Positions 1,885 to 44,712 of a stretch of DNA of 64,000 nt are shown piece by piece (within the stretch, counting starts at the first letter, position 1; the number at the start of each line of letters is the position of its first letter). The notes under the pieces were generated by a model. That model worked only from the letters and a program-made list of their open reading frames with translations, had not been told where the DNA came from and ran no database searches. The DNA comes from an uncultured Candidatus Saccharibacteria bacterium (GTDB lineage Bacteria > Patescibacteriota > Minisyncoccia > UBA6257 > JACOXY01). The stretch lies in NCBI GenBank assembly GCA_964357615.1, contig CAYHMC010000007.1, positions 4,896-68,895 of the forward strand, read 5' to 3'. The position numbers and the translations under genes were made by a program.

Positions 1885-3147
1885 TTATTTATCTTCTTTA
1901 ACTTCAGGTGTGTCTATTTTAACTTCTGGTGTATCAGTTTTTATAGCTTCATCTTCAGTGGAAGCTACAGCCACTCCTTCAGCTTGCACTTCTTCTGGTC
2001 GAGATTGCGACCTAACATCTATTTTCCATCCTGTAAGTTTGGCGGCGAGTCTTACATTTTGACCACCACGACCAATCGCGAGAGAAAGTTGGTCTTCTGG
2101 GACAAAAACTCTAATTTCTCTCCTTGGAGAAATTTCGGTATAAGTTACTTTTGCTGGTGATAAAGAATTTGCAACAAATTTTTCTGGTTCTTCTTGCCAT
2201 TCAATAATATCTATTTTTTCATTTCCAAGTTCATTATTCACTGCCATTACTCTTGTTCCTCTCTGACCCACACAAGAACCAACTGGGTCAATATTTTCTT
2301 CAGTTGAGCTAACCGCTATTTTTGTTCGGCTTCCTGGTTCACGAGCTATGGCTTTAATTTGCACAATTCCATCCGAAATTTCTGGAACTTCCATTTCAAA
2401 TAATTTTCCAACAAATTGAGGATGCGCTCTAGATAAAATTATTGATGGTAGACGAGGTTCATTTTGCACAGCAACAACATAAAAACGAAGTCTTTCTCCA
2501 GACTTATAATGTTCTCCTGGGATAGTTTCGTTACCAAACATAACTCCGATTGCTCTTCCTAAATCAATATAAACATTTCCGCGCTCAAATCTTTGTACAA
2601 CTCCCGATGCAATTTCACCTTCTTTGTTTTCAAATTCAGAAAGAATTGCGTTCTTTTCTGCCTCGCGCAATTGTTGCAAAATAACCTGCTTCGCTGTTTG
2701 AGCAGCAATACGACCAAAATCATCATGAACCTCCAAGTCAAAAGTAAGCTCATCTCCAAGCTTAATATCTTTACCCATAGTTTCCTTTGCTTCGTCCATC
2801 ATAATGTGACGATCTGGATTATATCTTGGGAGTAAATCTTCTTCTGAATCTTCTATGATTGCTCTCTTGCTTGGAGTAGACTCTCTAGATTTATCATCAA
2901 TATCCTCTGGTTCTTCTTCTACGATACGAACAGTGCTTAAATCTACAACGGTTTTTACCTGCCAAAACTTAAGCTCTCCAGTCTCTGTGTTGAATTTTGC
3001 TTTAATAATTTCTCCACGCTTTCGATATTCTTTCTTATATGCAGCCGCAAAAGACGCCTCAATTGCACTAAGGATTACATCTGGCTCAAGTCCCTTTTCC
3101 GAAGCAATTTGAGAAATTGCGCGCGAAATATCTTTTAAGTTAAACAT
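1885..3147 (-). CDS. nusA: Transcription termination/antitermination factor NusA
   Basis: 420 aa. N-terminal MFNLKDISRAISQIASEKGLEPDVILSAIEASFAAAYKK matches the NusA N-domain. S1-like and KH-like central regions are present (GRGGQNVRLAAKLTGWKIDV). Confidence 0.9.
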   Translation of the reverse strand: MFNLKDISRAISQIASEKGLEPDVILSAIEASFAAAYKKEYRKRGEIIKAKFNTETGELKFWQVKTVVDLSTVRIVEEEPEDIDDKSRESTPSKRAIIEDSEEDLLPRYNPDRHIMMDEAKETMGKDIKLGDELTFDLEVHDDFGRIAAQTAKQVILQQLREAEKNAILSEFENKEGEIASGVVQRFERGNVYIDLGRAIGVMFGNETIPGEHYKSGERLRFYVVAVQNEPRLPSIILSRAHPQFVGKLFEMEVPEISDGIVQIKAIAREPGSRTKIAVSSTEENIDPVGSCVGQRGTRVMAVNNELGNEKIDIIEWQEEPEKFVANSLSPAKVTYTEISPRREIRVFVPEDQLSLAIGRGGQNVRLAAKLTGWKIDVRSQSRPEEVQAEGVAVASTEDEAIKTDTPEVKIDTPEVKEDK

Positions 3148-5910: not shown

Positions 5911-8127
5911 TTATTGTCCCTCAATAATTGTCCCCACTTGAACAGTAACTTGTTTGATTCTAACTACATCAGTACCAGCTTGGCTATTTTTGCATGAAAG
6001 GGTATAGGTTGTTGAATCTTCTGGATAAACATCATAAGTACCAGTGCATGTTCCCGCGCAGGGAGCGTCCGTAGAAATACCATGATCAATTGTATAATAA
6101 TTAGAATTATCACATCTCCAAGTTAATTGAGATATCTGTTCAGACTTAACAAGGCTTGGATTAGCTGAAAAAGAAGCTATTGGTATATTAATTACACGAA
6201 CATATTCTGAATCTCCGATATTAGTAACACCATCAGGGGTACACTGGATTATATATCTTAATAACCTAGTTAGTGGGCCACCAGTTGCAATGGTTGGAGT
6301 ATTGAAAGTACGACTTCCGCTTACATTACCTGGGACGGCATTGGTATTAAGAATTGAAAAATTATTCCCATCTGTATCGCTGTCCCACCAATTAGTTCTA
6401 TCACTATCTTCTGGTGGTTCTGGCAATGCTCTTTGTGCCTGACAACTAATCAAAGCGCTACCAACCCAATCAATAGTAATTGGATCTCCTTCATCTTTAA
6501 TTAGAGGGTTACCGACTGGATTATCAGCATTATCAATTTCTAAATCAATTAGAGGTGTTGGGGTTGGGACGATTGGGGTTGGAGTGGGGATGAGAGGCGA
6601 ACTTCCTGTGCTGAAAATTGCGCTAGTAGACCACCTGGTTCTATTTCCATTCGACGACCTCGCTTGAACACGCCATCTATAATTTTTATTTCTTTCAAGT
6701 GAAACTGTGCGAGAAGTTACCCCGCTACTTACATTTTCATTATTATAATTATCTAAACCACTAGTAGCGGTTGCGGGAAACCCATTTGTTCTAAAATCTG
6801 ATACCTTTTCCATACAATCCACATCATAATTCGTAGCTGAATTATCGCGACATAAATCAGCGCTAGGCAAATTAGAATCTAACTGATCTTGGTCTTGAAT
6901 TTGAATGCGGTATCTATTTTGAGAACCAGACCCGCCGAATGCAAAATTTGGTGGGTCGCTAAAAGTCCAATCTAGAGTCACTCTCATCCGACCATAAGCA
7001 TCCAAAGGCCCAGAAACTGGATCCGGTGGACCAACTATATTTACAATTGGGGGAGGTGGAAGTGTTGGAAGTGGTGCGAAGGGTGACGGTGATGCGCCAG
7101 CGCCACTAAGTGAAAATCGCCATCTTATTGTAAGAGCTTGATTAGCAATAATAGGTAATGTTACTAAATTGCTACTAGTATACGGTCCCGCTGTACAAAC
7201 TGGACCAGAGATTGGTCCATAACAATATTTATAACCATCTAATGTGTGACTACTGGGTATAGCCGAACTCGGTATTGATACCGTTACATTGGTTCCGTTA
7301 GCAATTCCAGCTCTCTCGTAAAAATATCCATTTCCTGAATCTGTAGGATATGAAACTGGAGAACCAGCGCCAACTGCTATATTGACTGATGTTTCAACTC
7401 CATCAAAAGTAATTGCTTCCATTGTCCATCCTATTACCGAACCAGTTCCTGGAGCTATAGTTGGTGTTGGAGATATTGGAGTTGGAGTAGAAGCGGGAAG
7501 TGGCGCATCAACACAAACATGGGCAGCTCTTCTAATTTCCCCGGCTCCATCACCAGAAAAACCAACAGACGATAAAACTGCTCTTAGGGCAATGCATTCA
7601 ACATAAGTCTCTGCGTCTTCATCTGGATCGACACCGCAACTTCCGTTGCATGTCATATTATTAATACTCGTTGCACTATTTAAGGGATTGAAACATTTTG
7701 CTGTAGCGAGATTAACACCACTGCCATCTGTCTTGAATCCAATACCTTTTAGTAACCAACCTAAAGGACAAACTGCCCAGTCTTCCATGTTGTCTGGTGG
7801 AGTTGAGTCATTATAACTGATATTGCAATCTGTGAAACTAGAACCACCACAGAACTGAATGCTAGTCTGAGTGCTTGGCAATCTATAACAACTTGCTCCT
7901 ATTCTCGTTACGGTATTGCCATCACCGGCAATGCCAACAGCTCTTAAGTATTCTCCTGAGGCACAACTAACCCAGCGCTCTGAAACCGATGAACTCTCAA
8001 AACAATCATCTGATCTGGTGCCCCAACAATGCACAGCTCCAGAAGAAGTAAAACTAGCTAGCGCAACATTAAAAACTAATAATATTAAAATTGGGGAAAC
8101 TAAAAATAAATATTTTTTGTAATTCAT
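5911..8127 (-). CDS. Large secreted repeat-containing surface protein, paralog B
   Basis: 738 aa with a signal peptide. Three Cys-bounded repeats (C..GEYLRAVGIAGDGNTVTRIGASC, C.LGWLLKGIGFKTDGSGVNLATAKC, C.ALRAVLSSVGFSGDGAGEIRRAAHVC). An FN3-like region (NYRWRVQARSS) precedes a PTPTP linker and the C-terminal ~230 aa, which is identical to paralog A. Confidence 0.6.
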   Translation of the reverse strand: MNYKKYLFLVSPILILLVFNVALASFTSSGAVHCWGTRSDDCFESSSVSERWVSCASGEYLRAVGIAGDGNTVTRIGASCYRLPSTQTSIQFCGGSSFTDCNISYNDSTPPDNMEDWAVCPLGWLLKGIGFKTDGSGVNLATAKCFNPLNSATSINNMTCNGSCGVDPDEDAETYVECIALRAVLSSVGFSGDGAGEIRRAAHVCVDAPLPASTPTPISPTPTIAPGTGSVIGWTMEAITFDGVETSVNIAVGAGSPVSYPTDSGNGYFYERAGIANGTNVTVSIPSSAIPSSHTLDGYKYCYGPISGPVCTAGPYTSSNLVTLPIIANQALTIRWRFSLSGAGASPSPFAPLPTLPPPPIVNIVGPPDPVSGPLDAYGRMRVTLDWTFSDPPNFAFGGSGSQNRYRIQIQDQDQLDSNLPSADLCRDNSATNYDVDCMEKVSDFRTNGFPATATSGLDNYNNENVSSGVTSRTVSLERNKNYRWRVQARSSNGNRTRWSTSAIFSTGSSPLIPTPTPIVPTPTPLIDLEIDNADNPVGNPLIKDEGDPITIDWVGSALISCQAQRALPEPPEDSDRTNWWDSDTDGNNFSILNTNAVPGNVSGSRTFNTPTIATGGPLTRLLRYIIQCTPDGVTNIGDSEYVRVINIPIASFSANPSLVKSEQISQLTWRCDNSNYYTIDHGISTDAPCAGTCTGTYDVYPEDSTTYTLSCKNSQAGTDVVRIKQVTVQVGTIIEGQ
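5917..6590. repeat. Approx. 690 bp direct repeat, copy 2, identical to 3359-4048
   Basis: See copy 1. Confidence 0.8.
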
Positions 8128-8130
8128 AAT

Positions 8131-8583
8131 TTAATCCCAATAAATAATTGTTGTGACTCTCGCTTCTAAGTTTTCATATAAATTATCTAGGTACAATTCA
8201 ATATACATTGCCTTTTTAATTTCACTTATTGATCCTACTTCAAATTTTCGATTTCCATCTACTCGCTCTTCATCATTACTTATATCTTTAAAATATTTTG
8301 TCTCATCGGATATATTTACAAAATATTTTTTAACTTTATTTTCATCAGATTCATCTTGAATTCCAACTGCCACGCGACCATATTTAGATTCTAAGGAATC
8401 TATTTGTCCCTTATCAATTAAAATTCCATATACAGAATCTTTATTTTGATTTCCGTTATTAATGTTAGGAACACCTTTTAAAACTGCTAGATAAACCAAA
8501 GTTCCAATAAAGACAACCAAAGAAAGAACTAAAATCCAAAGGTGGAAGTGACTCGACTTACCTGCTCCAGAGTTATTGTGCAT
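8131..8583 (-). CDS. Small N-terminally membrane-anchored protein, paralog B
   Basis: 150 aa. MHNNSGAGKSSHFHLWILVLSLVVFIGTLVYLAV is a TM segment and the C-terminus ends TTIIYWD. The stop lies 3 nt from the start of the downstream large surface-protein gene B. Confidence 0.5.
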   Translation of the reverse strand: MHNNSGAGKSSHFHLWILVLSLVVFIGTLVYLAVLKGVPNINNGNQNKDSVYGILIDKGQIDSLESKYGRVAVGIQDESDENKVKKYFVNISDETKYFKDISNDEERVDGNRKFEVGSISEIKKAMYIELYLDNLYENLEARVTTIIYWD

Positions 8584-9373
8584 AATATTATATTTTATAA
8601 AATATTTAATTTATTTATAAAATACTTTGTTACTTAAAAGTATAACACATTGGGGAATTATTCTATACTTTTTATTGTGAATATCTTTGTTAGAAAAAAC
8701 ATTAAATGATTGGGGCTGGGAATTCTATGAATAAAATATTAAATATAAATATCGCGCTTATGGCATACAAAAAAACTAATGTGCCTGTGGATAACTTGTT
8801 GATTTTGTATTGTATATCGATAAACATTGGTTCTTTTACCCCATAATAAAAACCAAATAAGTATATAGTTTTGTCTCGGTTATGACTTTTTTAAGCAAAA
8901 CAATAGATAAGTGCTAAGCTAATGCGAGAACTAGAGAACAAGCTTAATGGGAATTAAATAGAACATTGAAATTAAAATAAATAAATTAAAATAAATATTT
9001 TTAGTTAGTATCATTTGAAGTATAAAAATTATAAAAAATAAAGCCAAGTAAATTGTTTAAATTAAAAAAGTGTATTCAAAGCACATTCTCGCTCTAAAAA
9101 GCAAAATTTTAACCGAGATGCCCAGATTAAATATCGCAATTAAATTAAAGCTTAACTATTGAATTAATACGCCCGACAAATGTCTTAAACAAATAATTAT
9201 CGGAACAAAATATATTCAAAAGTAATAAACAAGTTCTTAAGGATTTTGAATTTTACCAAAAAAATAAATTGGGAATTGGGACTTTGCCTACTAAATAAAT
9301 ATCTGACTCAATTAGCTATGCATAATAAAATTCAAAAAAAATATATAATTTTCAATTTTGAAAATTAACATTT

Positions 9374-10413
9374 TGTTTATCAATAAACAATTTAGAAAAA
9401 ATATTCTATATAAAAATCTCGTAAATCTCCATAAAGTGTTTACCGATAAACATTTCTTTTTAAAAAATACTTAACAACGAACAACAACGCCGAAGCGTAG
9501 GCGCAAAAAATTATTAAAAACATCTTAATATTTTTGTAGATCAAACTAATTTAATATCCTAAATTTTAATCGAAGAACATTTTATTCAACTTAATAAAAG
9601 GTTTAACGATAAACAAAAAAGATTGGGGAGTCGACTTTGCAATATAAAAATATTCATCAACAAATGTTTGGCGATAAACAATTTTAGAAATATGAACAAA
9701 TAACTTTTTTGTGATTGACTGCCAATAACAAATTATAAAAATAGAACTTAAAAAATCATTTAAGCGATTGTTTAGAGTGATTAAGAAATTTATTTTTAAT
9801 CATGCAAATCTTAAAATAATAACTGCAATATTTTTTAATGAATGTTTATCGATAAACAATCAATTCTATTTCGTAAAATGTTTACCGATAAACATTTTAT
9901 TTTATTTAGCAGAATGTTTAACGACAAACAATTTTATTTTTTGAGAAAAATGTTTATCGTTAAACAAAATATTGACTGTTAAATTGAGAGGTTTAAATTT
10001 TTATATAAATTGTTTACTAATAAATATTTTATATAAGTGGAAATTAAATATTGATTAAATGATTATTGTTCTATAAAAAATATTTTTAATTACTGCTCTC
10101 CAGTTATATTAAAATAATTAGGCAATTAAAATAATTAGGCAATCAGGCAATTGCCTAATTTTACTATCGGCAACTAGTAATTTGTCGAAAATGTTTAGCG
10201 ATAAACATTTTTAAAATTCTATATCTAATATTAATTTCCAAAAACTTAATAAAATGTTTATCGACAAACATTTTATTTTATTTAGCAGAATGTTTAACGA
10301 CAAACAAATATATATTTAATTGAAAATAAAAAAAATTAATGTGAATGTTTATCGGTAAACATTTTTAATAATTTTGAATGAATTATTTATTTACGAGTGT
10401 TTGACGATAAACA
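9374..10413. repeat. Array of about 13 copies of a 16-bp perfect or near-perfect palindrome, TGTTTAnCGAnAAACA, often extended to a 20-22 bp palindrome AAATGTTTA.CGA.AAACATTT. A further degenerate copy lies near 10764.
   Basis: Hand-located copies begin at roughly 9374, 9427, 9600, 9665, 9843 (perfect TGTTTATCGATAAACA), 9879, 9915, 9951, 10192, 10255, 10291, 10346 and 10398. Spacing is irregular (33-240 bp). All lie in a gene-free AT-rich region. Confidence 0.85.
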
Positions 10414-10927
10414 AATAGCTCAAAAAAACTAGTTCTATAAAACTAGTAAATATATCTCTCTGACTCAGCCACTCCTATTTTTTGATTTTGCATTAGTTTA
10501 TATTAGTAACTAATATCGCTGTCAAATAGCCACATAAATTAGAACACGAATTCCTAAAAGATTTTCAATCTTCATAACCCAAATAAAGCTTGATCGCTAA
10601 GCTAACTAAGTTACAGCAATGAACATATAGATGGGCATTGCTGTATAAACCAGCTGCACAAAATGGATTACGGAACCAATAAATCTTAAATTATGATTAG
10701 ATAAAAATATCACTATAAACTATCAATAATTGAGTATTGGATTCAATTTTATGCATAATAAAATGTAAACCGACAAACAAAATATTTTAAATAGCCCAGT
10801 TTTTACTTGCTGGTTCATCTGTTAAACATTTTATTTGTTTAACAAGACTTGCTTCTAGACTATAAAAAATAATTCCTCGATTATGGTGAGCAAACTCAAT
10901 AACAATAAAAATAGATCTATAGAATAG

Positions 10928-11009
10928 TGGGCAGGGAGGGATTTGAACCCTCAAGGATTTCTCCATACGGTCCTAAGCCGTACGCGTATGCCAATTCCGC
11001 CACCTGCCC
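10928..11009 (-). tRNA. tRNA-Leu, anticodon TAG, type II with long variable arm
   Basis: Reverse complement folds as a cloverleaf. Acceptor stem GGGCAGG/CCTGCCC, D-stem GCG/CGC, anticodon stem TACGG/CCGTA with loop CTTAGGA (anticodon UAG). The variable arm is ~13 nt (GGAG-AAAT-CTCC stem-loop) and the T-arm is GAGGG-TTCAAAT-CCCTC. Discriminator A; no encoded CCA. Confidence 0.8.
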
Positions 11010-11125
11010 AAACTCAAACAATATAACCTTTAGCCAGTAATCACCCCCAACTAACAGGCGCTAATTTACTAGTATTTAAGATAACAATAATCACTTTCAC
11101 TTGATTGTACTCTATTTATCTTACT

Positions 11126-11154
11126 TTGACAAATTGATGCTTTTATTGTACAAT
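11126..11154 (+). promoter_or_regulatory. Sigma70-like promoter: TTGACA, 17-nt spacer, TACAAT
   Basis: TTGACA at 11126-11131, a 17-nt spacer, and TACAAT at 11149-11154. This lies about 75 nt upstream of the GTG start at 11229, which has an AAGGAAA Shine-Dalgarno. Confidence 0.55.
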
Positions 11155-11228
11155 GTTTTCAGTTCGTAGACAAAGCTGGATAATGTGAATTACAACGCTA
11201 AGCACCAAAACTAAGAAAGGAAACGCGA

Positions 11229-12308
11229 GTGACTGACAGCAAAGCATCAAAAAAAACCAAGCAACCTTGGTACAATGAGATTGGGATAATGATAGGACTA
11301 ATTGTTTTCGTCCTTTCTAGCTATTATTTTGGCATTGGTCCGGTTCCTGCACTTCTTGCAGTAATCGCAGCCATTTTGCCATCAGCTGTAATTATTGTAC
11401 CGCCACTTCATTATGCAGTGCATGATATTTTGGGAAAAAGAGTTAAAAGGGTTACCTTCGAAGGCCCTAAGCTTGTTCTTCCTTTTATGGAAAGCATTAC
11501 TCTTATTGAGAGGGAACTTAAGCGAATACCCTTCATCGCAATCTTTACTAGCGAAGACGAGCAAGAAATTCAAATCAAGGGCGAGCTACAATATCGTGCC
11601 GACCCTGAAGTAACCAATCGCGAAGGTTATAATGTTCACGCTGAAATTTCAGACGAAATTTTATCGCACGGCATCAATGAAGCCATCGAATCGAAAGTAG
11701 GCGCACTTGGTGGCCTTAAAGAACTTCTGGAATTTATTAAAAATAGAAATGCGATAGAAGATTTCTTAAATTGCTCTTTTCGATTAAGTAAGCCACCACA
11801 CCTAAACCACGATAGCAATAACTGCGGAATTGCAGACTGCAAATTGCCGGTGTGTGTTGATGCCTGTGACATTCCTGATTATTACAACAAGCATCATCGT
11901 GAAGTTAAGGCGCTCTTAGACAACGATAGCAAAAATACTAAAGACAGATCCAACATCGAAACTCGTTACGGTATCGATGTCATAAGTCTTCCACTTGGCA
12001 CAATCAGTTTTTCGGAAAAAACAAAAGAATCGATGGAAAAAAAGAAACAAGTGGAATTGAGAAGAGATGCTTTTGAAAGCACAGTCGCGATGATTAAAAA
12101 AGTTAGAGAACTTGGAGAAGATGTAACTTTCCAAGAGGCAGCTAATGCGGCTCATTGCGCGCTAGAACCAGAAATTGCTAAGAGCAAAAGAATTGTTTCT
12201 GTGGAAGGAGGACTTGGGATGCTGGGTGCCCTACTCACGAACATGGTCGGCATTACCGGCGACGAAAATCAGAATAAAAAAACTCAGCAAAAAACGGGTT
12301 CTAAATAA
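11229..12308 (+). CDS. SPFH/Band-7 (stomatin/prohibitin-like) domain membrane protein
   Basis: 359 aa with a GTG start. An N-terminal TM region is followed by GKRVKRVTFEGPKLVLPFMESITLIERELKRIPF...IQIKGELQYRADPEV, which resembles the SPFH core. The C-terminal half is charged and coiled-coil-like. Confidence 0.55.
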   Translation: MTDSKASKKTKQPWYNEIGIMIGLIVFVLSSYYFGIGPVPALLAVIAAILPSAVIIVPPLHYAVHDILGKRVKRVTFEGPKLVLPFMESITLIERELKRIPFIAIFTSEDEQEIQIKGELQYRADPEVTNREGYNVHAEISDEILSHGINEAIESKVGALGGLKELLEFIKNRNAIEDFLNCSFRLSKPPHLNHDSNNCGIADCKLPVCVDACDIPDYYNKHHREVKALLDNDSKNTKDRSNIETRYGIDVISLPLGTISFSEKTKESMEKKKQVELRRDAFESTVAMIKKVRELGEDVTFQEAANAAHCALEPEIAKSKRIVSVEGGLGMLGALLTNMVGITGDENQNKKTQQKTGSK

Positions 12309-12799
12309 TGGCTCACCGAGTAAAAATTTCAAACGACTACACGTCAATTAGCGCTCTCATTAAGTTAATTATCTTTGTTTCGATTGTTGTATTCGCATCT
12401 CATTGTTTTTATAAATCATCTAACGATAGTGATACGACAAATAATCCGTCCTCAACCGTTAGTGGAAAATGTAGCGAGTTTAGGATTTGGTCATTGACCA
12501 ACAGACGACTACATAATCGTGCTTATATAAACGAATCAATCAATGGCTGCGTTGATATTGATTTGATGGGAGATTATCCATTTACTTTGGAATTTTATTC
12601 AGCTGGACCTGCAATTCACTTCGATTGCACACCTCTTCAAAATGGTGTGTCGGTCGTAGCTATTAAATGTCCAGGAATGCAAAAGCCAATAATCTTGGAC
12701 TCAAATACTAAAGATTATGTTTTAGGCGGCGAATCCTGTGGACAGAGTCCGCTTAAAATTTATGGAACAGGAAGTTGCACATTAAAACTCATAAAGTAA
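12308..12799 (+). CDS. Hypothetical Cys-rich membrane-anchored or secreted protein
   Basis: 163 aa. Its start overlaps the stop of the upstream gene (TAATGG). It has an N-terminal hydrophobic segment and 8 Cys. No family was recognised. Confidence 0.4.
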   Translation: MAHRVKISNDYTSISALIKLIIFVSIVVFASHCFYKSSNDSDTTNNPSSTVSGKCSEFRIWSLTNRRLHNRAYINESINGCVDIDLMGDYPFTLEFYSAGPAIHFDCTPLQNGVSVVAIKCPGMQKPIILDSNTKDYVLGGESCGQSPLKIYGTGSCTLKLIK

Positions 12800-12886: not shown

Positions 12887-13234
12887 TTAACCAGCGCTAA
12901 TACCAAGAAAATCACGGACCAAGAAAGTAACCGAGGCGGCAAGGAGAGCTACGCCGATTGCTACTGCTGCATAAATGACTGCATTTGTAGCTTCAGAAAC
13001 TTTGCTAGCATCTCCACCAGAGGTAAGATATTTAAATGCTGCAATAAGCAAAAAGATTACTGCAACAATAAGAAATATGCTGAATAACCAACTTACCACA
13101 TTTTGCAAAAGACCTAATACATATTCAATATTAAAACCAGGAATTGGAGCTGGGGCAACGAGAGCTGCTCCGGCTATCATTGGTAGCAACAAACTAGCTA
13201 CTGCGATTACTCCAGAAATTTTTTGTAATTTCAT
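12887..13234 (-). CDS. VirB2/TrbC-like T4SS pilin paralog 1
   Basis: 115 aa. Long signal peptide MKLQKISGVIAVASLLLPMIAGAA, then two hydrophobic helices separated by a short polar loop (FKYLTSGGDASKVSEA). The small C-terminal tail ends ...GISAG. It is about 90 percent identical to the 14140..14487 product. Confidence 0.55.
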   Translation of the reverse strand: MKLQKISGVIAVASLLLPMIAGAALVAPAPIPGFNIEYVLGLLQNVVSWLFSIFLIVAVIFLLIAAFKYLTSGGDASKVSEATNAVIYAAVAIGVALLAASVTFLVRDFLGISAG

Positions 13235-13483
13235 AAATTTATAATTATTAACAATAATAAAATTTACGACCTTTAATGAATAAATTATTTAAGCCAACTT
13301 AAAATATAGATAAGTTGCCATATAAGTATTATATACTATATTACCTAAGATTTAATTAATACTGTGGATAAAAATTAAATAGAATAATTTTACAAATAAA
13401 AAACGCCGACCAGAAAATCAGCGCTTTTTATTTGTAATAAGTATTTCTTAGTTACTAACTTACCTAGCAATGAGCAATATATT

Positions 13484-13831
13484 TTACCCTGCAGATATGC
13501 CCAAGAAACTCTCCACCAAACTACGAACGCCACTAGCAAGTAGCGCTACACCAATTGCTACAACCGCAAATATTACTGACCTATTTGCTTCGGAAACCCT
13601 AGAGGCATCTCCACCAGAGGTAAGATATTTAAATGCTGATAAAAGAAGCATTACCACAGCAAAAATCATAAAAATAGCAAAGAGCCAGTTAACTGCTGTA
13701 TCTAAAATGCCCAAAAAAGTTCCAACATTCAAAGTAACACTTGGTGGTGGTGGTAAAGGAGCAGCACTTGCAATCATCGGCAAAAGCATGCTTCCTAAGA
13801 AAAATATTTTTGAAATTTTATTTAACTTCAT
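13484..13831 (-). CDS. VirB2/TrbC-like T4SS pilin paralog 2
   Basis: 115 aa with the same architecture. MKLNKISKIFFLGSMLLPMIASAA signal peptide, AFKYLTSGGDASRVSEANRSVIFAVVAIGVALLA, ends GISAG. Confidence 0.55.
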   Translation of the reverse strand: MKLNKISKIFFLGSMLLPMIASAAPLPPPPSVTLNVGTFLGILDTAVNWLFAIFMIFAVVMLLLSAFKYLTSGGDASRVSEANRSVIFAVVAIGVALLASGVRSLVESFLGISAG

Positions 13832-14139
13832 AAAAAATTTATCAAAACTACGACCTTTTCATAATTATGTTTTAACGATGAAGACTAAGTACCCGATTAA
13901 ATAGTTTAACAAAAAAATATTTAATCGAAAATAATTAATCACATTGTCATATATTAATTCTAAACCCTCAATTCCTGAATTGCAAATAAGTCAATAATGA
14001 TCTTCTATTCATAATTATATTTTATATATTTAACAAAAAATATATTTCCCTAACTAGGAATTAAACACAAAAGCGCTCTGGAACTAAACCAAAGCGCTTT
14101 TTATTATATTACATGGCTAGCTATACAATGTAACTCTAA

Positions 14140-14487
14140 TTAACCAGCGCTAATACCAAGAAAATCACGAACCAAATATTGAACTGAAGCGGCAAGGAGA
14201 GCTACGCCAATTGCAACTGCTGCATATATAACAGATTTGCTTGCTTCTCCTACCTTTGCTGAATCTCCACCAGAGGTAAGATATTTAAATGCTGCAAGAA
14301 GCAAAAAGATTACTGCAACAATAAGAAATATGCTGAATAACCAGCTTACTACATTCTGCAAAAGACCTAATACATATTCAATATTAAAACCAGGAATTGG
14401 AGCTGGGGCAACAACTGCTGCTCCGGCTATCATTGGTAGCAACAAACTAGCTACTGCGACTACTCCAGAAATTTTTTGTAATTTCAT
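14140..14487 (-). CDS. VirB2/TrbC-like T4SS pilin paralog 3
   Basis: 115 aa, near-identical to paralog 1. Confidence 0.55.
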   Translation of the reverse strand: MKLQKISGVVAVASLLLPMIAGAAVVAPAPIPGFNIEYVLGLLQNVVSWLFSIFLIVAVIFLLLAAFKYLTSGGDSAKVGEASKSVIYAAVAIGVALLAASVQYLVRDFLGISAG

Positions 14488-14705
14488 AAATTATTTTAAT
14501 TATTTGCCGACCTTTTAAAGCCTACTCATTAATAGTAACTAAAAAACAGGCATTCGAGCAAATGTGGATAAGTCTTAGTAAGAACAGAGGGCGCTTAATC
14601 ATAAAAATAATATTTAAAAATATCTAAACAAATCCCAACAATAAGTTAAAAAAACAAACTGCTCCTTGCTATGTTTGTGGTGTGAGCTCTATCAAGATAA
14701 GTTTT

Positions 14706-15026
14706 TTAACCAGCAAACCCTCCACCCGTTATAAGCTCTATGATGAGAGTTGTTATGCCTTTTGATAAATATGCGGTTAGCACTGCTAAAACTGCATAGA
14801 CTAGGGCTCGATTGGCAGTTCTAACTTCTTCTGCATTAGCACCTGCGGTAGCATATTTGAATGCAGAGTAAATTACAGCAATTACAGAAAAAATAATTAG
14901 AGAAGTAAAAACGAAGGCAATGATTCTATCGAAAATTAATAAGACTCCCGCGGAATCAATGTTTGAAACTGATCCAGCTGGATCAACGCCACCGCCAACT
15001 GCTGATTGAGCTAAATATTTAAACAT
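14706..15026 (-). CDS. VirB2/TrbC-like pilin paralog 4 (divergent)
   Basis: 106 aa with two hydrophobic helices and the loop FKYATAGANAEEVRTAN. Gly-rich C-terminus ITGGGFAG. Confidence 0.5.
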   Translation of the reverse strand: MFKYLAQSAVGGGVDPAGSVSNIDSAGVLLIFDRIIAFVFTSLIIFSVIAVIYSAFKYATAGANAEEVRTANRALVYAVLAVLTAYLSKGITTLIIELITGGGFAG

Positions 15027-15035
15027 AATTATATT

Positions 15036-15425
15036 TTAACCAGCCGCAGCACCACCGCTAATTATTTCCCTTACCAAAGTTATTATTCCTTTAGAAACAA
15101 GCACTAATGCAAATCCAATAATTGCATACATTATTGATTTGCTTCCTCTCCTAAACTGCTCGGCATTGCCACCAGCTGTTAACATTTGAAAAGATCCGAT
15201 TAAAATCATAATAACGGCAATGGGGATAGATATGGTTACCAAAAAACCAATTGCAATATTAATAATATCAACCAAGTTTTTGTCGCCTACAGGATTGGGA
15301 ACAGGAATTACTCCACCAGGCACAATGTCGCCAGCCTGCGCGTATATAAAATTTATATTTATAAATCCAAAAAGCACAACGAAGCTAAGTATTTTTAAAC
15401 TATTCATTACTAATTTAGTATTCAT
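15036..15425 (-). CDS. VirB2/TrbC-like pilin paralog 5 (divergent)
   Basis: 129 aa. Signal/TM segment, then SFQMLTAGGNAEQFRRGSKSIMYAIIGFALVLV. C-terminus ISGGAAAG. Confidence 0.5.
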   Translation of the reverse strand: MNTKLVMNSLKILSFVVLFGFININFIYAQAGDIVPGGVIPVPNPVGDKNLVDIINIAIGFLVTISIPIAVIMILIGSFQMLTAGGNAEQFRRGSKSIMYAIIGFALVLVSKGIITLVREIISGGAAAG

Positions 15426-15465
15426 AAATAAAAGTGATTTAATATTATTCTTATATATTTTGATT

Positions 15466-19662: not shown

Positions 19663-22131
19663 TTATAAGCATACAATACCAGCGATCTTATCTCCAGGCT
19701 TCAAGGACATTATACGAACTCCCTGAGTATCACGACCAGCTTCGCGAATATCTTTAATGCTGGTTTTAATTATTTGTCCTCTTGTAGATAAGGCTAAAAG
19801 TTCTTCTTCATTAGTAATGATTCTTGCCGCAATAACTTGTCCAGTTTTTTGATTTATTTTTGCAGTTTTAATTCCAGAGCCACCGCGATTTTGAATTTTA
19901 TATTCATTGATACTTGTTCTTTTCGCATAACCCATAGACATTACTACAAGCAAGTAAACATTCTTATCTTCGCTCGCTTCTTTGGTTATGACATCGAAAG
20001 AGCTTACTTTATCTCCTTTCTTTAATCGAATAGCATTTACTCCGCTTGCGGCTCTACCCAGCGGACGAATATCATCTTCTTTAAATCTAATAGCCTGACC
20101 GTTTCTTGTTGCAATAAGCACATCGCTACCTGAACCAGCCATACTTACCCAACGCAATAAATCTTCGTCTTTTAATTTAAGAGCAATTATTCCAGAGCGT
20201 CTGACATTTTCGAAATCTTTAAGAGGAGTTTTTTTGATTACTCCATTTTCTGTAACCATAACTAAATTTAGTTCTTCTTTTTCTTTTCCAGAATATGCAA
20301 TAACCGCGCTTACATTTTCAGTTGTTGGAATTTCTAAAAAGTTATGAATTGCTTTGCCTTTGGACGTACGGGAGCCAACTGGAATTTCATATGCTTTCGT
20401 TTGAAACACCTTACCTCCAGTTGTAAAGAAAAGCATGTTGTCATGGGTATTTACACTTACAAAATGGGTAACGAAATCTTCTTCGCCCATCTCTCCACCA
20501 ATGATTCCCTTACCACCTCTTCGCTGAACTTTAAATCCCTCTGGGTTTATTCTTTTAATATAACCTCCGGCAGAAATTGTAATAACAGCCTCTTCTTCGG
20601 GAACTAAATCTTCTTCTCGAAATTCTTTTAATCCACCGGCAACAACTTTAGTTCTTCTGGCATCTCCAAATTTTTCTTTAATTTCTTTTAGTTCATCCTT
20701 AACGACATCTTTGATTTTTTCTGGATTCTTAAGAAGAAGCTCTAATTCCTTTATGAGTTTATGTTTTTCTTTAAGTTCTTCTTCGAGTTTATATCGCTCA
20801 AGCGCAGCTAAAGCTTGCAATCTCATTTCTAATATCGCGGTTGCCTGCAAAATGCTTAACTTGAAATTTTTAATAAGATTTGCGTGGGCTTCCTCTTTGT
20901 TATTCGATTTCTTAATCGTTGCAATAATTTTATCTATAACTGAAAGCGCCTTAACAAGGCCTTCTAATATATGGGCTCTTTCTTTTGCTTTCTTTAAATC
21001 AAATTCGGCTCTTCTTTTTACAATTTCTCTGCGGTGATCTAGAAATTGCTCTAACATGTCTTTAACAGACATTAGAACTGGCTGAAGTCCGCCTTCAAGA
21101 GAAATCAAATTCAAATGGAAATCTTTTTGTAAATCAGTATGTTTATAAAGTTGATTTAGAATTTTTTGTGGAGGAACATCATTTTTTAATTCAATTACAA
21201 TTCTTATTCCATCTTTATCAGATTCATCGCGAATATCACGAATGCCTTCTAGTCTTTTCTCTTCAACTAACTCTGCCATCTTAATAATTAGCTCTGACTT
21301 GTTAACTTGATAAGGAATTTCGGTAATTATAATCGAATATTGATTATTTTTTTTCTCTATAACCTCAGCAAGTCCTCTAACGGTAATCGGACCACGACCA
21401 GATGCATAACACTCAACGATAGACTTTCTATCATATATAATGCCTCCGGTAGGAAAATCTGGTCCCTTAAGAATCTCCATAATGTCTTCAATATTAGATT
21501 TTGGTTTATGAAGAATGAGCGTAGCAGCATCAATCACCTCAACGATGTTGTGTGGTGGAATCATCGTAGTCATGCCAACTGCGATACCCATCGAACCATT
21601 TAAAAGAAGGTTTGGTATTTTTGCAGGAAGCACTTTTGGCTCTTCACGACTACTATCATAGTTTGGTTGCCAATTAACGGTTTCTTTTTCGATGTCGAGC
21701 AATAATTCCTCGGCAATTCTAGAAAGACGCGATTCAGTATAACGCATAGCAGCGGCGGAATCTCCGTCGATAGAACCGAAGTTGCCTTGTCCTTCTATTA
21801 ATGGATAGCGCATCGAAAACGGTTGCGCCAATCTTACTTGAGCATCATAAACAGATGTGTCGCCATGAGGGTGATAACGTCCCAACACTTCTCCGACTAC
21901 ATTTGCAGATTTTTTAAATTTTGCACTATGAGTCAAACCCATATCCCACATAGCCCAAAGAATTCTTCTATGAACTGGTTTTAGGCCGTCTCTAACATCG
22001 GGCAAAGCGCGAGTAACAATTACAGACATCGCATAATCAAGATAAGACTCTTGAAGCTCGTCAGTAATTTCACGCCTTTCAATTTCTGCTACAATTTTTG
22101 GAATTTTAATTTCTTTATCCTTACTTGCCAT
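19663..22131 (-). CDS. gyrA: DNA gyrase subunit A
   Basis: 822 aa. [60 protein letters not shown], and C-terminal beta-pinwheel repeats. Confidence 0.95.
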
Positions 22132-22143
22132 AAAATAGTTAAA

Positions 22144-22497
22144 TTAGTTGCCTATATTTTTTTCAATCATTATATCATTACTTTTATTTGTAACACCAAG
22201 AATCATGGCTTTGATTTTATTATAAATCGCTCCTGAGTTTCGTTTAAAATTTGAAATGAGTGGATTTTCTTTAGTCTCATTTGTTCGAGTAATAGAAATA
22301 GAATTTTGTTCAACTTGCGCAGTTGGTATTTTTTCAATTGTTGCATTTATATAAAGCACCCAAAAAACAAAAACAATAAAAATGGATATCCCGCTTAAAA
22401 CCATAACCCATATCTTCTTTGCTCTCTCGTCTAAATTTCTTAAATAATCAATTAAGTTATGAATTGATTTTTCTTTATAGTGATAGGAGGTGGGCAT
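22144..22497 (-). CDS. Hypothetical membrane protein
   Basis: 117 aa with one TM segment (IWVMVLSGISIFIVFVFWVLYI). No recognised family. Confidence 0.35.
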   Translation of the reverse strand: MPTSYHYKEKSIHNLIDYLRNLDERAKKIWVMVLSGISIFIVFVFWVLYINATIEKIPTAQVEQNSISITRTNETKENPLISNFKRNSGAIYNKIKAMILGVTNKSNDIMIEKNIGN

Positions 22498-22529
22498 TTT
22501 AAAAAATACAATTATACATTAATTAATAA

Positions 22530-23132
22530 CTATGCATCAATGCATACAAGTTTTGCTTTATCTCCCATCTCAATAATATCTTTCTTCTTTATAACTAGTT
22601 TATCTATTTTTTCACATTTCTTTCCTAATTCATCCACATAAGAAGCGAGTTGTTTTGCTGGATATACAACCGTAATGCTTGGGTCGAACTGTTTAATTAA
22701 CTTATCGGCACTTTTAGGATCTAAGTATGTTTTTCCAACTGGAATAAAAAGTATATCGATGTCGCTAATTTTTCCCATTATTTCAGAAGACGGTGGGGCT
22801 GATATATTTCCCATAAAAAGAATGGAGACATTTTCAATCGTTACAAGATACATTGTATCAGCAAGACCACTTTTTAAATCTAGATTTGTTTGAAAACCAT
22901 GCACCAAAACCTCTTGAATTTCATATTCACCACCACCAGAAATAACCATCTCCCCTTTACTAGAAACAGAAGAAGATAGAGCCGGCACATCACCCTTGCC
23001 AACATTAACTAACTTGTTTTGAGTTAAAAGTGTTATGTCTGACTTAAATTTTTCACTAGTAGGATCAATTAAAACATTAATTTTGCCACTTCCAATCCTA
23101 AAGCAAGTATCATTGTGATATGTAATTACCAT
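22530..23132 (-). CDS. Metallo-beta-lactamase-fold metal-dependent hydrolase (UPF0173-like)
   Basis: 200 aa. The N-terminus MVITYHNDTCFRIGSGKINVLIDP resembles the MKITYLGHSCF... start of small MBL-fold hydrolases. Confidence 0.45.
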   Translation of the reverse strand: MVITYHNDTCFRIGSGKINVLIDPTSEKFKSDITLLTQNKLVNVGKGDVPALSSSVSSKGEMVISGGGEYEIQEVLVHGFQTNLDLKSGLADTMYLVTIENVSILFMGNISAPPSSEIMGKISDIDILFIPVGKTYLDPKSADKLIKQFDPSITVVYPAKQLASYVDELGKKCEKIDKLVIKKKDIIEMGDKAKLVCIDA

Positions 23133-23475
23133 TTTTTTACAAACTGCTAACTTAAATTAAATAATAAATATTGAAGGAAATTATGCATAGCCTTTACGAT
23201 TTTATTATTTATCGTTACCAGTTATGAGTTATTCATTATACATTACCTTAATTAAACTTGCTTTTCAACTCAAAATGGCTTATAGTGACATTCAACTAGT
23301 TATTACTAGATTGTAAGTATATGGCTATATTTAGCTGAAAATCTAAATATCCATTTAATTTCCAAAGCGACTAGTATGATTAAATCGATTTAGATAAATT
23401 TAAATCGAACATTATTATTAATATTAATTTGGAATAAAAACGAAATTTAATTTATCGTTTTCTGTCTTTATAAAA

Positions 23476-24555
23476 ATGAAAACTTCATTCGCAGATTTTG
23501 TAAAAAATGACGCCACGGTGTTAAAGCTTCCTCGCGAAGGCGAAGTAGTAGATGGCATACTAATTGAAAAGAAACCACGCAGAGCTTATTTTAATTTAGG
23601 CACTCTTGGAACTGGAATAGTTTATGGTAGAGAATATTTAAATGCAAAAGAAATTATTAAGGGATTAGCTGTGGGAGATAAAATGAGCGCTAAAATATCT
23701 GCCGTTCAGAACGAAGATGGCTATGTAGAACTTTCACTTGGCGCAGCAAGCGAAGAAAAACAATGGGGTGGGGTTCAAGACCTTAAAGAATCTGGTGAAA
23801 TTATCACCCTAAAAATAACTGGGGCAAATAGCGGAGGTTTAATAGCTGATTTAAGCAACTTAAAAGCATTTTTACCTGTATCACAATTATCTAACGAACA
23901 TTATCCTAGAATTTCTGGTAGCGAGAATCAAAAAGAGGCCATATTAAAAGAGCTTAAGAAATTTACAGGACAGGAAATGCGAGTAAAAGTAATAGATGTA
24001 AATCCCAGAACTGAAAAACTTATTATTTCCGAGCGTGAAATTACAGATGAAAATGTCAAAGAATTACTTAAAAAATATACGGTAGGCGATATAGTCGATG
24101 GCATAGTATCGGGCGTTGCAGATTTTGGAGCCTTTGTTAAATTTGTTGACAATCCAGCAATTGAAGGACTTATTCACATCTCTGAACTTGATCATAAACT
24201 AATAGAAGGACCGAAAGATGTGGTTAAGGTTGACGACCCAGTAAGAGTAAAAATTATTGATATAAAAGATGGCAGGGTATTCTTGTCTCTCAAAGCCCTA
24301 AAAGCCGACCCATGGGCCACCATTGCAGAAAGATACAAAGAAGGAGCAGAAGTTTCTGGAAAAGTTAAAAAGTTTAACCCTTATGGTGCGTTTATAGACT
24401 TGGGCGACGGCGAAATTCAAGGCCTAATCCATGTTTCTGAATTTGGGGGAACAGAAGAAATGAAAAAAGTGTTAGAGCTTGGAAATACGTATAACTTCAC
24501 AATAACAACACTAAAACCAGAAGAGAAAAGATTGCTTCTTAAGATAAAAAAATAA
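23476..24555 (+). CDS. rpsA: 30S ribosomal protein S1 (short four-S1-domain form)
   Basis: 359 aa with four S1-like repeats. GEVVDGILIEK..., GEIITLKITGANSGGLIADL, VGDIVDGIVSGVADFGAFVKF...GLIHISEL, AEVSGKVKKFNPYGAFIDLGDGEIQGLIHVSEF. Confidence 0.8.
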   Translation: MKTSFADFVKNDATVLKLPREGEVVDGILIEKKPRRAYFNLGTLGTGIVYGREYLNAKEIIKGLAVGDKMSAKISAVQNEDGYVELSLGAASEEKQWGGVQDLKESGEIITLKITGANSGGLIADLSNLKAFLPVSQLSNEHYPRISGSENQKEAILKELKKFTGQEMRVKVIDVNPRTEKLIISEREITDENVKELLKKYTVGDIVDGIVSGVADFGAFVKFVDNPAIEGLIHISELDHKLIEGPKDVVKVDDPVRVKIIDIKDGRVFLSLKALKADPWATIAERYKEGAEVSGKVKKFNPYGAFIDLGDGEIQGLIHVSEFGGTEEMKKVLELGNTYNFTITTLKPEEKRLLLKIKK

Positions 24556-24612: not shown

Positions 24613-24623
24613 TTAAATAAAAA

Positions 24624-42764: not shown

Positions 42765-43103
42765 ATGATTTCAAAAGACTCGCTAACAAACTATAAAATA
42801 AAGCTGGAAGATGAGAAGGCAATTTTAGAGCAGGAAATAAAAGACTTGGAACAGAAGCCAGATTTTGGAGGAGATTCAGTTGATATTGAAACAGAAGAAT
42901 CTGACGAATCGGAAGTTATATCAACAAATCTTGCATTGGCACAACCACTAAAAGAGCGACTGAGTGAAGTTAATGACGCACTTTCTAAAATTGTAAATGG
43001 TGGCTTCGGGGTTTGTGAAAAATGCAAAAATGAAATTGACGAAGAGTTACTTTCTATAAATCCAGAATCTAGACTTTGTAGAAAGTGCAAACTAGAGCTT
43101 TAA
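42765..43103 (+). CDS. DksA/TraR-family C4-type zinc-finger protein
   Basis: 112 aa. Coiled-coil N-terminus, then CEKCKNEI...RLCRKCK with four Cys arranged as in DksA/TraR. Confidence 0.6.
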   Translation: MISKDSLTNYKIKLEDEKAILEQEIKDLEQKPDFGGDSVDIETEESDESEVISTNLALAQPLKERLSEVNDALSKIVNGGFGVCEKCKNEIDEELLSINPESRLCRKCKLEL

Positions 43104-43158
43104 ATTTATAAATCTTGTTATTAAACTGCTCTAAATAAAAATTGGGGCTGAATTTTTT

Positions 43159-44712
43159 ATGTCTTCTTTTTCTAAAGTATTTTCAGCTGAACTTGAGGGA
43201 ATTAATGCCAGATTAATTGATGTGGAGGTGGACACTTTAGTCGGCCTACATTCTTTTAATATTGTAGGCCTTGCCGACAAAGCTCTCTCCGAAGCAAAAG
43301 AGAGAGTTAACTCAGCTTTAAAAAACTCTGACATTAAACCACCCAACAAAGAGAATAGGAAAATAACAGTAAATCTTGCTCCAGCGGACATAAAGAAAGC
43401 TGGATCGCAATACGATCTTGCTATTGCGATTGGTTACGCGCTTACCACAGAACAAATAAGACCATTTGATACAAAAGATAAAGTTTTTGTTGGGGAACTT
43501 GCGCTAAACGGAGAACTTCGCCCAATAAGTGGAGCACTAAGCATAGCTGAAATGGCAGAAGGACTTGGATATAAATATTTATTTCTTCCAAAAACCAACG
43601 CTGAAGAAGCGAATATAATAAAAAGAATAAATGTTATTGGGGTAGAGACACTAAAAGAACTGATAAGTTTTCTTGAAAATCCAGAGAAACTACACATTTC
43701 ACCAAAAGAAAACACGAAAACAAAAAATGAAAGTAATGAATTCAAAATCACGCTAGACGATATTCGTGGCCAAGAAAATGCAAAACGGGCGCTAATCATC
43801 TCGGCTTCTGGTGGTCATAATCTGCTAATGACAGGCACTCCTGGCGCCGGCAAAAGCATTATAGCCGAGAGTATAATATCTATTTTACCAGAAACAACAC
43901 CAGAAGAATCAATTGAGATAACAAAAGTTTGGAGTGCCGCAGGCCTTAATAAAGGAGGGTTAATAAGTGTTCGTCCTTTCCGATCACCACACCATAGCGC
44001 TTCAATTATCTCTGTGGTTGGAGGAGGCTCAAACCCAAAACCAGGAGAAATAAGCTTAGCGCATCGTGGTGTTTTATTCTTAGATGAAATGCCAGAATTT
44101 CCGCGAAGCATCCTTGAGTCTCTTCGTCAGCCACTAGAAAATGGCGAAGTTCGTGTCGCAAGAGCAAAAGCCACGCTAACATTTCCCGCACGCTTTATAC
44201 TTGTTGCCGCCATGAATCCATGCCCTTGTGGTTACTTTGGAGACAAAGAACATGAATGTCGCTGTAGCGCCAACGAAGTTTTTAAATATGAAAAAAGAAT
44301 TTCTGGACCATTACTTGATAGAATCGATTTACAAATATTAGTGCCAAGAGTAAGTGTTGGTGAATTAATGGAAAAAAGACCTAAAAACAACGGCTCGGAA
44401 ACTAAAAAATCTAGGGAACAAATCCAAAGAGCCAGAGATATTCAAACAAAAAGATTTTCTGGACTTAAGGGTCAAAGGAAAATTTTCACTAATGCTGAAA
44501 TGTCATCAAAGGAATGCGAGGAACTAATTCAACTTTCGTCTGACTCTGAAATATTTCTAAAAAAGATTTTAGAAGACAATCTTGTTTCTGCTCGCGGGTA
44601 TTATCGAATTTTAAAAACGGCAAGGACAATTGCAGACCTTGAGGCTTCGTTAGAAGTAAAAAAAGAGCATCTCGCAGAGGCATTTTCATACAGAATAAGA
44701 AACAGAGAATAG
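43159..44712 (+). CDS. comM: YifB/ComM family Mg-chelatase-like AAA+ ATPase
   Basis: 517 aa. An N-terminal Lon-protease-like domain (SAELEGINARLIDVEVD) is followed by Walker A MTGTPGAGKS, Walker B VLFLDEMPEF, and the C-terminal ChlI-like region. Confidence 0.85.
   Translation: MSSFSKVFSAELEGINARLIDVEVDTLVGLHSFNIVGLADKALSEAKERVNSALKNSDIKPPNKENRKITVNLAPADIKKAGSQYDLAIAIGYALTTEQIRPFDTKDKVFVGELALNGELRPISGALSIAEMAEGLGYKYLFLPKTNAEEANIIKRINVIGVETLKELISFLENPEKLHISPKENTKTKNESNEFKITLDDIRGQENAKRALIISASGGHNLLMTGTPGAGKSIIAESIISILPETTPEESIEITKVWSAAGLNKGGLISVRPFRSPHHSASIISVVGGGSNPKPGEISLAHRGVLFLDEMPEFPRSILESLRQPLENGEVRVARAKATLTFPARFILVAAMNPCPCGYFGDKEHECRCSANEVFKYEKRISGPLLDRIDLQILVPRVSVGELMEKRPKNNGSETKKSREQIQRARDIQTKRFSGLKGQRKIFTNAEMSSKECEELIQLSSDSEIFLKKILEDNLVSARGYYRILKTARTIADLEASLEVKKEHLAEAFSYRIRNRE

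Follow-up and report, generated by a model that had tools for sequence, protein, structure and literature searches.

We identified, in a 64-kb stretch of DNA (contig CAYHMC010000007.1; hereafter the window, meaning its full 64,000 nucleotides), a dense array of 16-bp palindromic sites that resemble parS, the site bound by the partition protein ParB. Our preferred interpretation, which we hold to be reasonably probable, is that this is a chromosomal array of diverged parS sites for ParB loading that serves as a centromere. Judged from sequence, the most economical and most likely description is the architecture of the F-plasmid centromere sopC placed on a chromosome, an undescribed, plasmid-like form of chromosomal centromere. 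We observed the array itself, a family of similar arrays in bacteria of the candidate phyla radiation (CPR, or Patescibacteria), their conserved genomic context, the continuum that they form with canonical parS, and the presence of ParAB genes among CPR relatives.

Searching both strands of the window with TGTTTANCGANAAACA and allowing up to 2 mismatches yielded 33 matches, against 1.16 expected and a maximum of 5 in any shuffled sequence. Thirteen sites matching TGTTTAnCGAnAAACA with at most 1 mismatch lie within 9374-10413, in agreement with a first-pass annotation of this sequence that had reported a dense palindrome array in a gene-free region. The array and its surroundings comprise the following features:

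8584..10926, no strand assigned: AT-rich intergenic region of ~2.3 kb holding the array
8811..8826, no strand assigned: outlying copy TGTATATCGATAAACA (1 mismatch), 228 bp upstream of a gene for a 150-aa protein
9374..10413, no strand assigned: core array, 13 copies of TGTTTAnCGAnAAACA, with the usual extended form aaaaTGTTTA.CGA.AAACAtttt in base counts by position
9843..9966, no strand assigned: four-copy sub-block with an exact 36-bp period (starts 9843, 9879, 9915, 9951)
9874..9941, plus strand: two-copy 68-nt unit, duplicated at 10250-10317 with 93% identity (repeat family D1)
10011..10026, no strand assigned: decayed copy TGTTTACTAATAAATA (3 mismatches), in repeat families D3 and D6
10192..10413, no strand assigned: distal five-copy sub-block (starts 10192, 10255, 10291, 10346, 10398)
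10764..10779, no strand assigned: degenerate copy TGTAAACCGACAAACA (2 mismatches)

The core-array copies start at 9374, 9437, 9600, 9665, 9843, 9879, 9915, 9951, 10192, 10255, 10291, 10346 and 10398, with start-to-start spacings of 63, 163, 65, 178, 36, 36, 36, 241, 63, 36, 55 and 52 bp. The recurrence of the 68-nt unit of 9874-9941 at 10250-10317 shows that part of the array arose by segmental duplication. The copy at 10764 had been recorded by the first-pass annotation, which had not listed those at 8811 and ~10011, and its description of the sites as perfect palindromes holds for a single copy, TGTTTATCGATAAACA at 9843; in the remaining copies, such as TGTTTATCGACAAACA at 10255, symmetry is broken at inner positions 6/11 or 7/10. 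Position 7 is free and position 10 is A in 13/16 copies, the two being complementary in just 6/16, so the inner bases are not kept complementary, and sequence rather than base pairing is what the copies conserve. An unrelated second repeat, TTAGGCAAT, occurs three times at 10108-10160, in the 226-bp gap separating the two halves of the array, and includes a 12-bp perfect palindrome (AGGCAATTGCCT).

One explanation to be weighed against this anatomy is that the array works as RNA once transcribed, as a TIGR-like (tandem interspaced guide RNA), CRISPR-like or hairpin array. Each unit can form an A/U hairpin of -5 to -8 kcal/mol, some copies follow a 36-bp period, and TIGR-Tas systems occur in CPR bacteria, where their arrays have a 36-nt unit and can contain palindromic elements (PMC12045711). 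TIGR arrays, however, alternate two repeats of 8-12 nt, separated by 9-nt spacers, next to a Tas gene with a Nop domain, and function as RNA, none of which is found in the window: its array consists of one 16-bp repeat at irregular spacings of 36-241 bp, no Tas or Cas gene is present, and the inner positions show no covariation. An Rfam search of the array region returned no family besides the flanking tRNA-Leu, and a permissive search gave chance microRNA matches only. We regard a role as RNA as extremely improbable.

The intergenic region that holds the array contains no open reading frame (ORF) longer than 58 aa and has a GC content of 24.5% (0.245-0.248), against ~36% elsewhere; promoter-like sites were no commoner in it than in shuffled sequence. 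In other assemblies, both of the same Hainich groundwater community, contigs L001 and L002 match the window at 7566-12588 (99.9%) and 7583-9919 (100%). Since independent assemblies reproduce the region at 99.9-100%, a collapsed-repeat artefact, one of the two outcomes that the first-pass annotation had named as refuting, is excluded; the other, a REP (repetitive extragenic palindrome)-like motif spread uniformly, is contradicted within the window by the finding that 13 of its 18 sites fall in 1.6% of its length. The internal segmental duplication, and the fact that related arrays often end contigs, are what one would expect of a neutral or selfish tandem repeat (REP- or MITE (miniature inverted-repeat transposable element)-like) or of faulty assembly, but the identical assemblies, the single locus in 64 kb, the conserved genomic position of such arrays, and arms and a central CG that stay invariant (at positions fixed by our search pattern) amid unrelated spacers make this very hard to credit.

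We searched for related arrays in two collections. In a genome collection we looked for two nearby TGTTTNNCGNNAAACA sites, a loose pattern whose matches were dominated by canonical parS pairs from many phyla; only two loci were non-canonical, both from CPR bacteria (L092, Saccharibacteria, and L107, Paceibacterota). In metagenomes we used the pattern TGTTT-NN-CG-NN-AAACA, excluding the canonical C at position 6, which yielded at least 120 loci and, after setting aside 6 that were parAB-associated or of high GC, at least 114 CPR-like array loci. Copy number in these 114 ranges from 2 to 12 (median 5), with at least 7 copies in 32 loci, placing the window, with 13, at the top of the range among the arrays recovered. 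Most spacings fall between 33 and 52 bp and peak at 35-37, 41-43, 48-49 and 52 bp; helical phasing of the copies was considered and, given this breadth and the several modes, no clear phasing was found. The arms and central CG are invariant across the two named CPR phyla and the CPR-like contigs, at positions that the pattern itself fixes, and the inner positions differ by lineage and often also within one array, the commonest variant being TGTTTAGCGCTAAACA. In related loci the motif is essentially restricted to the array, and spacers are unrelated between arrays. Neither a scan of 2.9 million viral contigs with the motif pattern nor a BLAST search of the window's array against 72,556 plasmids returned a match. 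This parS-derived type of array is widespread in CPR bacteria and, apparently, undescribed; full-text literature searches found no paper tying parS or ParB sites to CPR bacteria or Patescibacteria.

Compared with canonical parS (TGTTTCACGTGAAACA), the window palindrome is identical at 12/16 positions, as the first-pass annotation had stated; the arms and the central CG are the same and the inner 4 positions differ. In L157 and L187, two arrays at the orthologous position in other lineages, 7 of the 12 copies (850 bp) are perfect TGTTTCACGTGAAACA sites, and a Pfam-verified yraN gene comes next downstream; in many arrays canonical half-sites are mixed with variant ones, the half-site types tracking the YraN tree. 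The sequence TGTTTGTCGATAAACA, which is the window copy at 10255 read on the opposite strand, occurs as paired sites at the parA promoter in L198, L235, L243 and L126; in an unrelated lineage of high GC, such a pair heads a parA-parB operon that was verified with Pfam and lies 4 kb from dnaA. The ParB proteins of L198, L235 and L243 read GLDR...GHAL, against xKSR...G..R in ~60 ParBs beside canonical parS. In the Caulobacter ParB-parS structure, the residues equivalent to these positions contact DNA, and the specificities of ParB and Noc diverged at the outer G and an inner half-site position (PMC7383237). In the CPR sites the outer G is unchanged and the variation falls on inner positions, including the half-site position where ParB and Noc diverged. 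Together with the ParAB genes of CPR relatives, these orthologous arrays and the identical site at a parAB promoter support the link to parS and the likeness to a plasmid centromere that the first-pass annotation had suggested.

ParAB is encoded in CPR bacteria. Locus L251, which shares zf-comM-ksgA-type IV secretion system (T4SS) synteny with the window (zf being a DksA/TraR-type zinc-finger gene) and whose ComM is 62% identical to that of the window, encodes ParA and a 376-aa ParB with ParB_N, HTH_ParB and ParB_C domains, a GKSR helix-turn-helix, a long low-complexity N-terminal insert and Ser at the position equivalent to Caulobacter G201. Its parB-parA operon (6011-7936 of a 284-kb CPR contig) lies 2 kb upstream of zf-comM, roughly in the usual slot of yraN and the array. 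A search for CPR ParBs seeded with the ParB fragment of L196 returned only 4 fragments. In the cultivated Southlakia epibionticum, parA and parB are growth-defect or essential genes by transposon sequencing (PMC10633639 supplement).

We clustered 298 flanking ORFs and verified representatives with Pfam. A UPF0102/YraN gene adjoins the array and is transcribed away from it in 80/120 loci, and in 40/53 loci with both flanks readable, with a median of 26 bp between the last palindrome and the yraN ORF. The gene downstream of yraN is nusA in 37 loci (nusA<-yraN<-array); the alternative is a Lactamase_B_3 gene with gyrA after it. On the opposite flank the commonest arrangement (~30 loci) is a small DksA/TraR-type zinc-finger gene followed by comM, and other far-side neighbours are ruvA, an NTP transferase, a Lactamase_B_3 protein and RNHCP. 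Genes diverge from the arrays in most loci. By comparison, canonical parS pairs in other phyla (n=118) have parB within 8 kb in 63 cases and parA in 66, and yraN in only 1. Look-ups of ComM homologues on five further CPR contigs often placed comM away from an array. The conserved link to yraN, comM and nusA is the strongest feature of the context; that to the yraN-comM module, strong though unexplained, could make the array more than a centromere. In S. epibionticum ML1, the ~2.8 kb after comM (SEML1_0138, 131540-133060), at 133061-135913 and 8 kb from gyrBA, contain a single 150-bp ORF, and yraN is fused to rnhB (PMC10633639 supplement); positions 133061-135913 are a candidate site for a similar array in a cultivable, transformable CPR bacterium.

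This context also supports another explanation, in which the arrays are operators or titration sites for a non-ParB factor, either a CRP/FNR-type dimer (5-N6-5) or the adjacent small zinc-finger protein, that controls yraN and comM, the window copy being an orphaned, expanded remnant. The arrays occupy the promoter region from which yraN and zf-comM diverge, and TGTTT-N6-AAACA matches CRP-family sites in geometry. YraN and ComM are reported to form a functional nuclease/helicase pair that resolves the natural-transformation D-loop (bioRxiv 10.1101/2024.02.06.579203). Because of the placement at the yraN promoter, the lack of parAB beside CPR-like arrays and the lack of palindromes near the parAB genes of L251, this is the main and a serious rival, if an unlikely one in our estimate. 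It has to accommodate up to 12-16 sites, far in excess of normal local operators, and far-side neighbours that are diverse; no conserved regulator gene was found next to the arrays in the 120 loci. A 12/16 match to parS and the mixing with perfect parS would moreover need coincidence. The array also survives without yraN or comM: it persists, and is largest, where these genes no longer adjoin it, namely in the window, where the zf-comM pair has no site, and in L225 (nusA<-array), L215 and L227, which lack an adjacent yraN. The lack of a conserved adjacent regulator gene, the confinement of the motif to a single locus, the invariant parS arms (fixed by the pattern) and the survival of the array after loss of flanking yraN and comM are our reasons for preferring a conserved trans-acting binder such as ParB.

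Two narrower regulatory readings were rejected. A LexA/SOS box, prompted by the recombination-gene neighbours, was dropped given that no lexA gene is present and the far-side neighbours are diverse. A LacI-family or other local operator, one of the alternatives raised by the first-pass annotation, found nothing in its support: there are at least 13 sites, and no LacI or other helix-turn-helix regulator occurs among the genes scanned, whether flanking the array or elsewhere in the window.

Several observations weigh against a ParB centromere and are gathered here. The 64-kb window contains no parA, parB or dnaA, as the first-pass annotation had also found, and the cognate protein is therefore unseen. 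None of the 114 CPR-like arrays has parAB adjacent to it; parB stands beside the sites in 5/120 metagenome loci, all 5 among those set aside as parAB-associated or high-GC. Within 21 kb of the parAB genes of L251 there is no parS-like palindrome, and L253 has the yraN / zf-comM arrangement and no array. The tight, near-universal placement at the yraN promoter resembles a cis-regulatory element. The variation of inner half-site positions within single arrays would require a ParB of relaxed specificity. Finally, the metagenome loci were chosen by the motif itself, an ascertainment whose pattern prescribed the TGTTT/AAACA arms and the central CG.

The window differs from most related loci in what lies around its array, and the genes relevant to the comparison are:

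1885..3147, minus strand: nusA, a left-hand neighbour conserved at such arrays
8131..8583, minus strand: orphan gene for the 150-aa protein with a hydrophobic N-terminal stretch, left boundary of the gene-free region
10927..11009, minus strand: tRNA-Leu (anticodon TAG), right boundary of the gene-free region
19663..24555, no single strand: divergent junction of gyrA (minus), a 117-aa gene (minus), a Lactamase_B_3 gene (minus) and an S1 protein gene (plus)
42765..44712, plus strand: DksA/TraR-type zinc-finger gene and comM, the usual right-hand neighbour of arrays elsewhere

The gene for the 150-aa protein holds the slot occupied by yraN in most related loci. Its hydrophobic N-terminus suggests a membrane anchor; the protein shows no similarity to UPF0102, and a search of 5.8 billion proteins returned only itself. 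Four genes without an informative database match separate the array from nusA, 6 kb to its left; three have no Pfam match, and the fourth encodes a 738-aa protein with a sub-threshold match to Ig_Rha78A_N (Ig-like; E = 1.8e-05, below the curated cut-off). No UPF0102 gene occurs in the 64-kb window and the zf-comM pair lies 32 kb from the array with no palindrome on it, so the array here lacks both of its usual promoter partners and yet is the largest seen. The window block zf-comM-...-M23-uvrD-ksgA is collinear with L250, which has the intact order nusA<-x<-yraN<-[3-copy array]->zf->comM, and a sister species (83% ComM identity) shows the same derived arrangement at comM. By this comparison of gene order, the window is a rearranged case of the ancestral yraN/comM arrangement.

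The gene content of the window, with many T4SS-pilin paralogues, PrgI and TraC-like T4SS genes, nusA, gyrA, ftsH, pnp, comM and tRNA-Ile(TAT), points to a CPR/Patescibacteria chromosome, and the closest named relatives of its ComM are from Liptonbacteria, Wolfebacteria and Paceibacterota. Judged by this housekeeping-gene setting and the lack of a BLAST match among plasmids, the array locus is chromosomal and not a plasmid. A plasmid type-Ia (sopC-like) centromere in the strict sense was likewise rejected: the array architecture fits, but the context is chromosomal, there are no partition genes within 64 kb, and no plasmid or viral sequence matched.

Some loci hint that the arrays may be origin-proximal. 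In L143, L228 and L128 (3/114 loci), dnaA or dnaN lies 6-11 kb from the array, against an expectation of ~0.6 loci for the 572 kb of flanks, given genomes of ~1 Mb, which we assumed as the typical size of a CPR chromosome. In L143 and L228 it is dnaA, within 6 kb. In 5 loci gyrA is near the array, and a gyrA/S1-type divergent junction, located 9-13 kb to the right of the array in the window, is found 0-8 kb from arrays in 8 other loci. In the window, gene strand and cumulative GC skew both turn at this junction, ~13 kb from the array, as a further hint, but no dnaA is present.

That replication of the chromosome starts at the array itself, or that the array is the iteron-type origin of a replicon that integrated, is nevertheless very improbable. 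In favour, the region lacks genes and is rich in AT, most loci have genes pointing away from the array, and a perfect DnaA-box 9-mer lies at 8786-8794 beside the outlying copy at 8811. The repeats, however, are palindromic, being neither direct iterons nor asymmetric DnaA boxes, and that DnaA box is single and unclustered. Neither the array nor the 23-kb strand switch, nor the surroundings of dnaA in L143, showed clustered DnaA boxes, and the window holds no rep or dnaA gene. Other arrays, e.g. L227, have GC-rich spacers, and copy number ranges from 2 to 13 between lineages. The first-pass annotation had raised an iteron origin, for which we found no support, and had suggested checking whether a GC-skew extremum falls at the array; the only gene-strand switch in the window coincides with the cumulative GC-skew minimum at ~23.2 kb, ~13 kb from the array.

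Of known systems, the F-plasmid sopC / SopB type-Ia centromere, with 12 tandem 43-bp units each carrying a 16-bp inverted repeat, is alike in architecture. The window likewise has a dozen 16-bp palindromes at 36-52-bp intervals in non-coding DNA, which would load a ParB-family protein repeatedly, but it is chromosomal, irregularly spaced, unrelated in site sequence and without an adjacent partition operon. The RK2/IncP operator OB, bound by KorB, has the sequence TTTAGCSGCTAAA, whose TTTAGC half-site recurs in TGTTTAGCGCTAAACA, the variant seen most often in CPR arrays. KorB, a ParB-family clamp, also represses transcription, and we propose such a double function for arrays over the yraN/comM promoters. 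In contrast to the arrays, OB is a 13-bp odd palindrome whose 12 sites are dispersed on the plasmid.

Chromosomal ParB(Spo0J)-parS shares with the window array the 16-bp even palindrome, the TGTTT/AAACA arms and the central CG (12/16). The window array differs in being degenerate at positions 6-7 and 10-11 even within one array, in packing 13-16 copies into 1 kb, whereas known parS sites are singles or pairs across tens of kb, and in not standing beside parAB, the arrays of its relatives being tied to the yraN and comM promoters instead. Noc and its binding site NBS (TATTTCCCGGGAAATA) of Bacillota show that changes in ParB-family specificity map to the outer G and the inner half-site position and leave the TTT..CG..AAA core intact (PMC7383237). 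NBS sites, by contrast, are scattered over the chromosome with the terminus excluded, Noc is restricted to Bacillota, and the outer G that changed in NBS is retained in the CPR arrays.

Under the centromere interpretation, each palindrome keeps the parS arms TGTTT/AAACA and central CG, and two inner positions per half-site have drifted. We infer ParB as the binder, and likewise every step after binding: ParB dimers (Spo0J-type CTP-dependent clamps) encoded elsewhere in the genome would nucleate at every copy, the 13-16 sites in ~1 kb forming a high-capacity loading zone built like F-plasmid sopC, and the resulting partition complex would drive ParA-dependent segregation and probably SMC loading in an origin-proximal part of the chromosome. 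The array would be inherited from a CPR ancestor that had it between yraN and comM, the link to these genes having presumably been broken by rearrangement in the window genome. Because the array overlaps the divergent yraN and comM promoters in most CPR relatives, ParB occupancy may also damp these transformation-recombination genes; such a dual role, with ParB also a local repressor by analogy with KorB, is plausible but speculative. A bolder version, in which the arrays organise the chromosome throughout the Patescibacteria and form a physical bridge between the segregation machinery and the recombination module of natural transformation, as a centromere combined with a cell-cycle-linked switch or a YraN-ComM D-loop platform and with a relaxed ParB or an unknown protein as binder, seems to us improbable.

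Other elements of the window were noted in passing. The first-pass annotation had placed related copies at 46238-46290; a degenerate palindrome, TGTTTGTTGATAAACA (46260-46275, 1-2 mismatches), is indeed present, whereas 46228-46255 is a different inverted repeat with everted half-sites (ATATGTTAAACA-tctg-TTGTTTAACATAT). These elements lie 1.5 kb downstream of comM, just past a terminator-like hairpin, and possibly represent a remnant site. At 34365-34520, between a XerC/D-like integrase gene and rpsO, TTTTGCGACA(A/G)TT occurs four to five times. The same 11-mer (TATTTTGCGAC / GTCGCAAAATA) flanks palindrome arrays in ~25 metagenome loci, including L157, L227, L215, L164, L191 and L199, often as an inverted pair around everted AAACA..TGTTT close to where yraN begins. 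The array of the window lacks this 11-mer, which may serve as a promoter element in CPR bacteria or as a second operator.

Between the array and gyrA, at least 5 paralogous T4SS_pilin (PF18895) genes lie at 12887-17985, one of them fused to an SLT transglycosylase domain. Perfect DnaA-box 9-mers (TTATCCACA) occur only four times in the window (8786, 13363, 14563 and 16056, all within 8.7-16.1 kb), two of them ~75-130 bp upstream of these pilin genes. A block at ~24000-28400 with 47-50% GC (against ~36% for the genome) contains an opposite-strand overlapping ORF pair (25528-26478) and a metallo-beta-lactamase / beta-CASP protein gene (26911-28359), and may be horizontally acquired. Positions 31581-34349 hold tRNA-Ile(TAT), tRNA-Val, two genes of unknown function and a XerC/D-type integrase; as this integrase recurs in L252 and L254 directly upstream of zf-comM, a conserved gene of the xer type is more likely than a prophage integrase.

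CPR bacteria make up a large share of bacterial diversity, with ultra-small cells and ~1 Mb genomes, and their chromosome segregation is essentially unstudied. If the arrays are the CPR centromere, they would provide a concrete, testable locus in the genetically tractable Saccharibacteria, a natural experiment on ParB specificity relaxing or drifting at defined half-site positions, a landmark for origin-proximal regions and contig breaks in metagenome-assembled CPR genomes, and a candidate for an element that stabilises CPR vectors. Through the near-universal link to yraN and comM, segregation would also be tied to natural transformation, and a link between ParB-parS and competence has some reported precedent in Streptococcus pneumoniae. 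If the coupling of the two holds, the arrays would represent a new functional class of parS-derived element, beyond the parS cluster.

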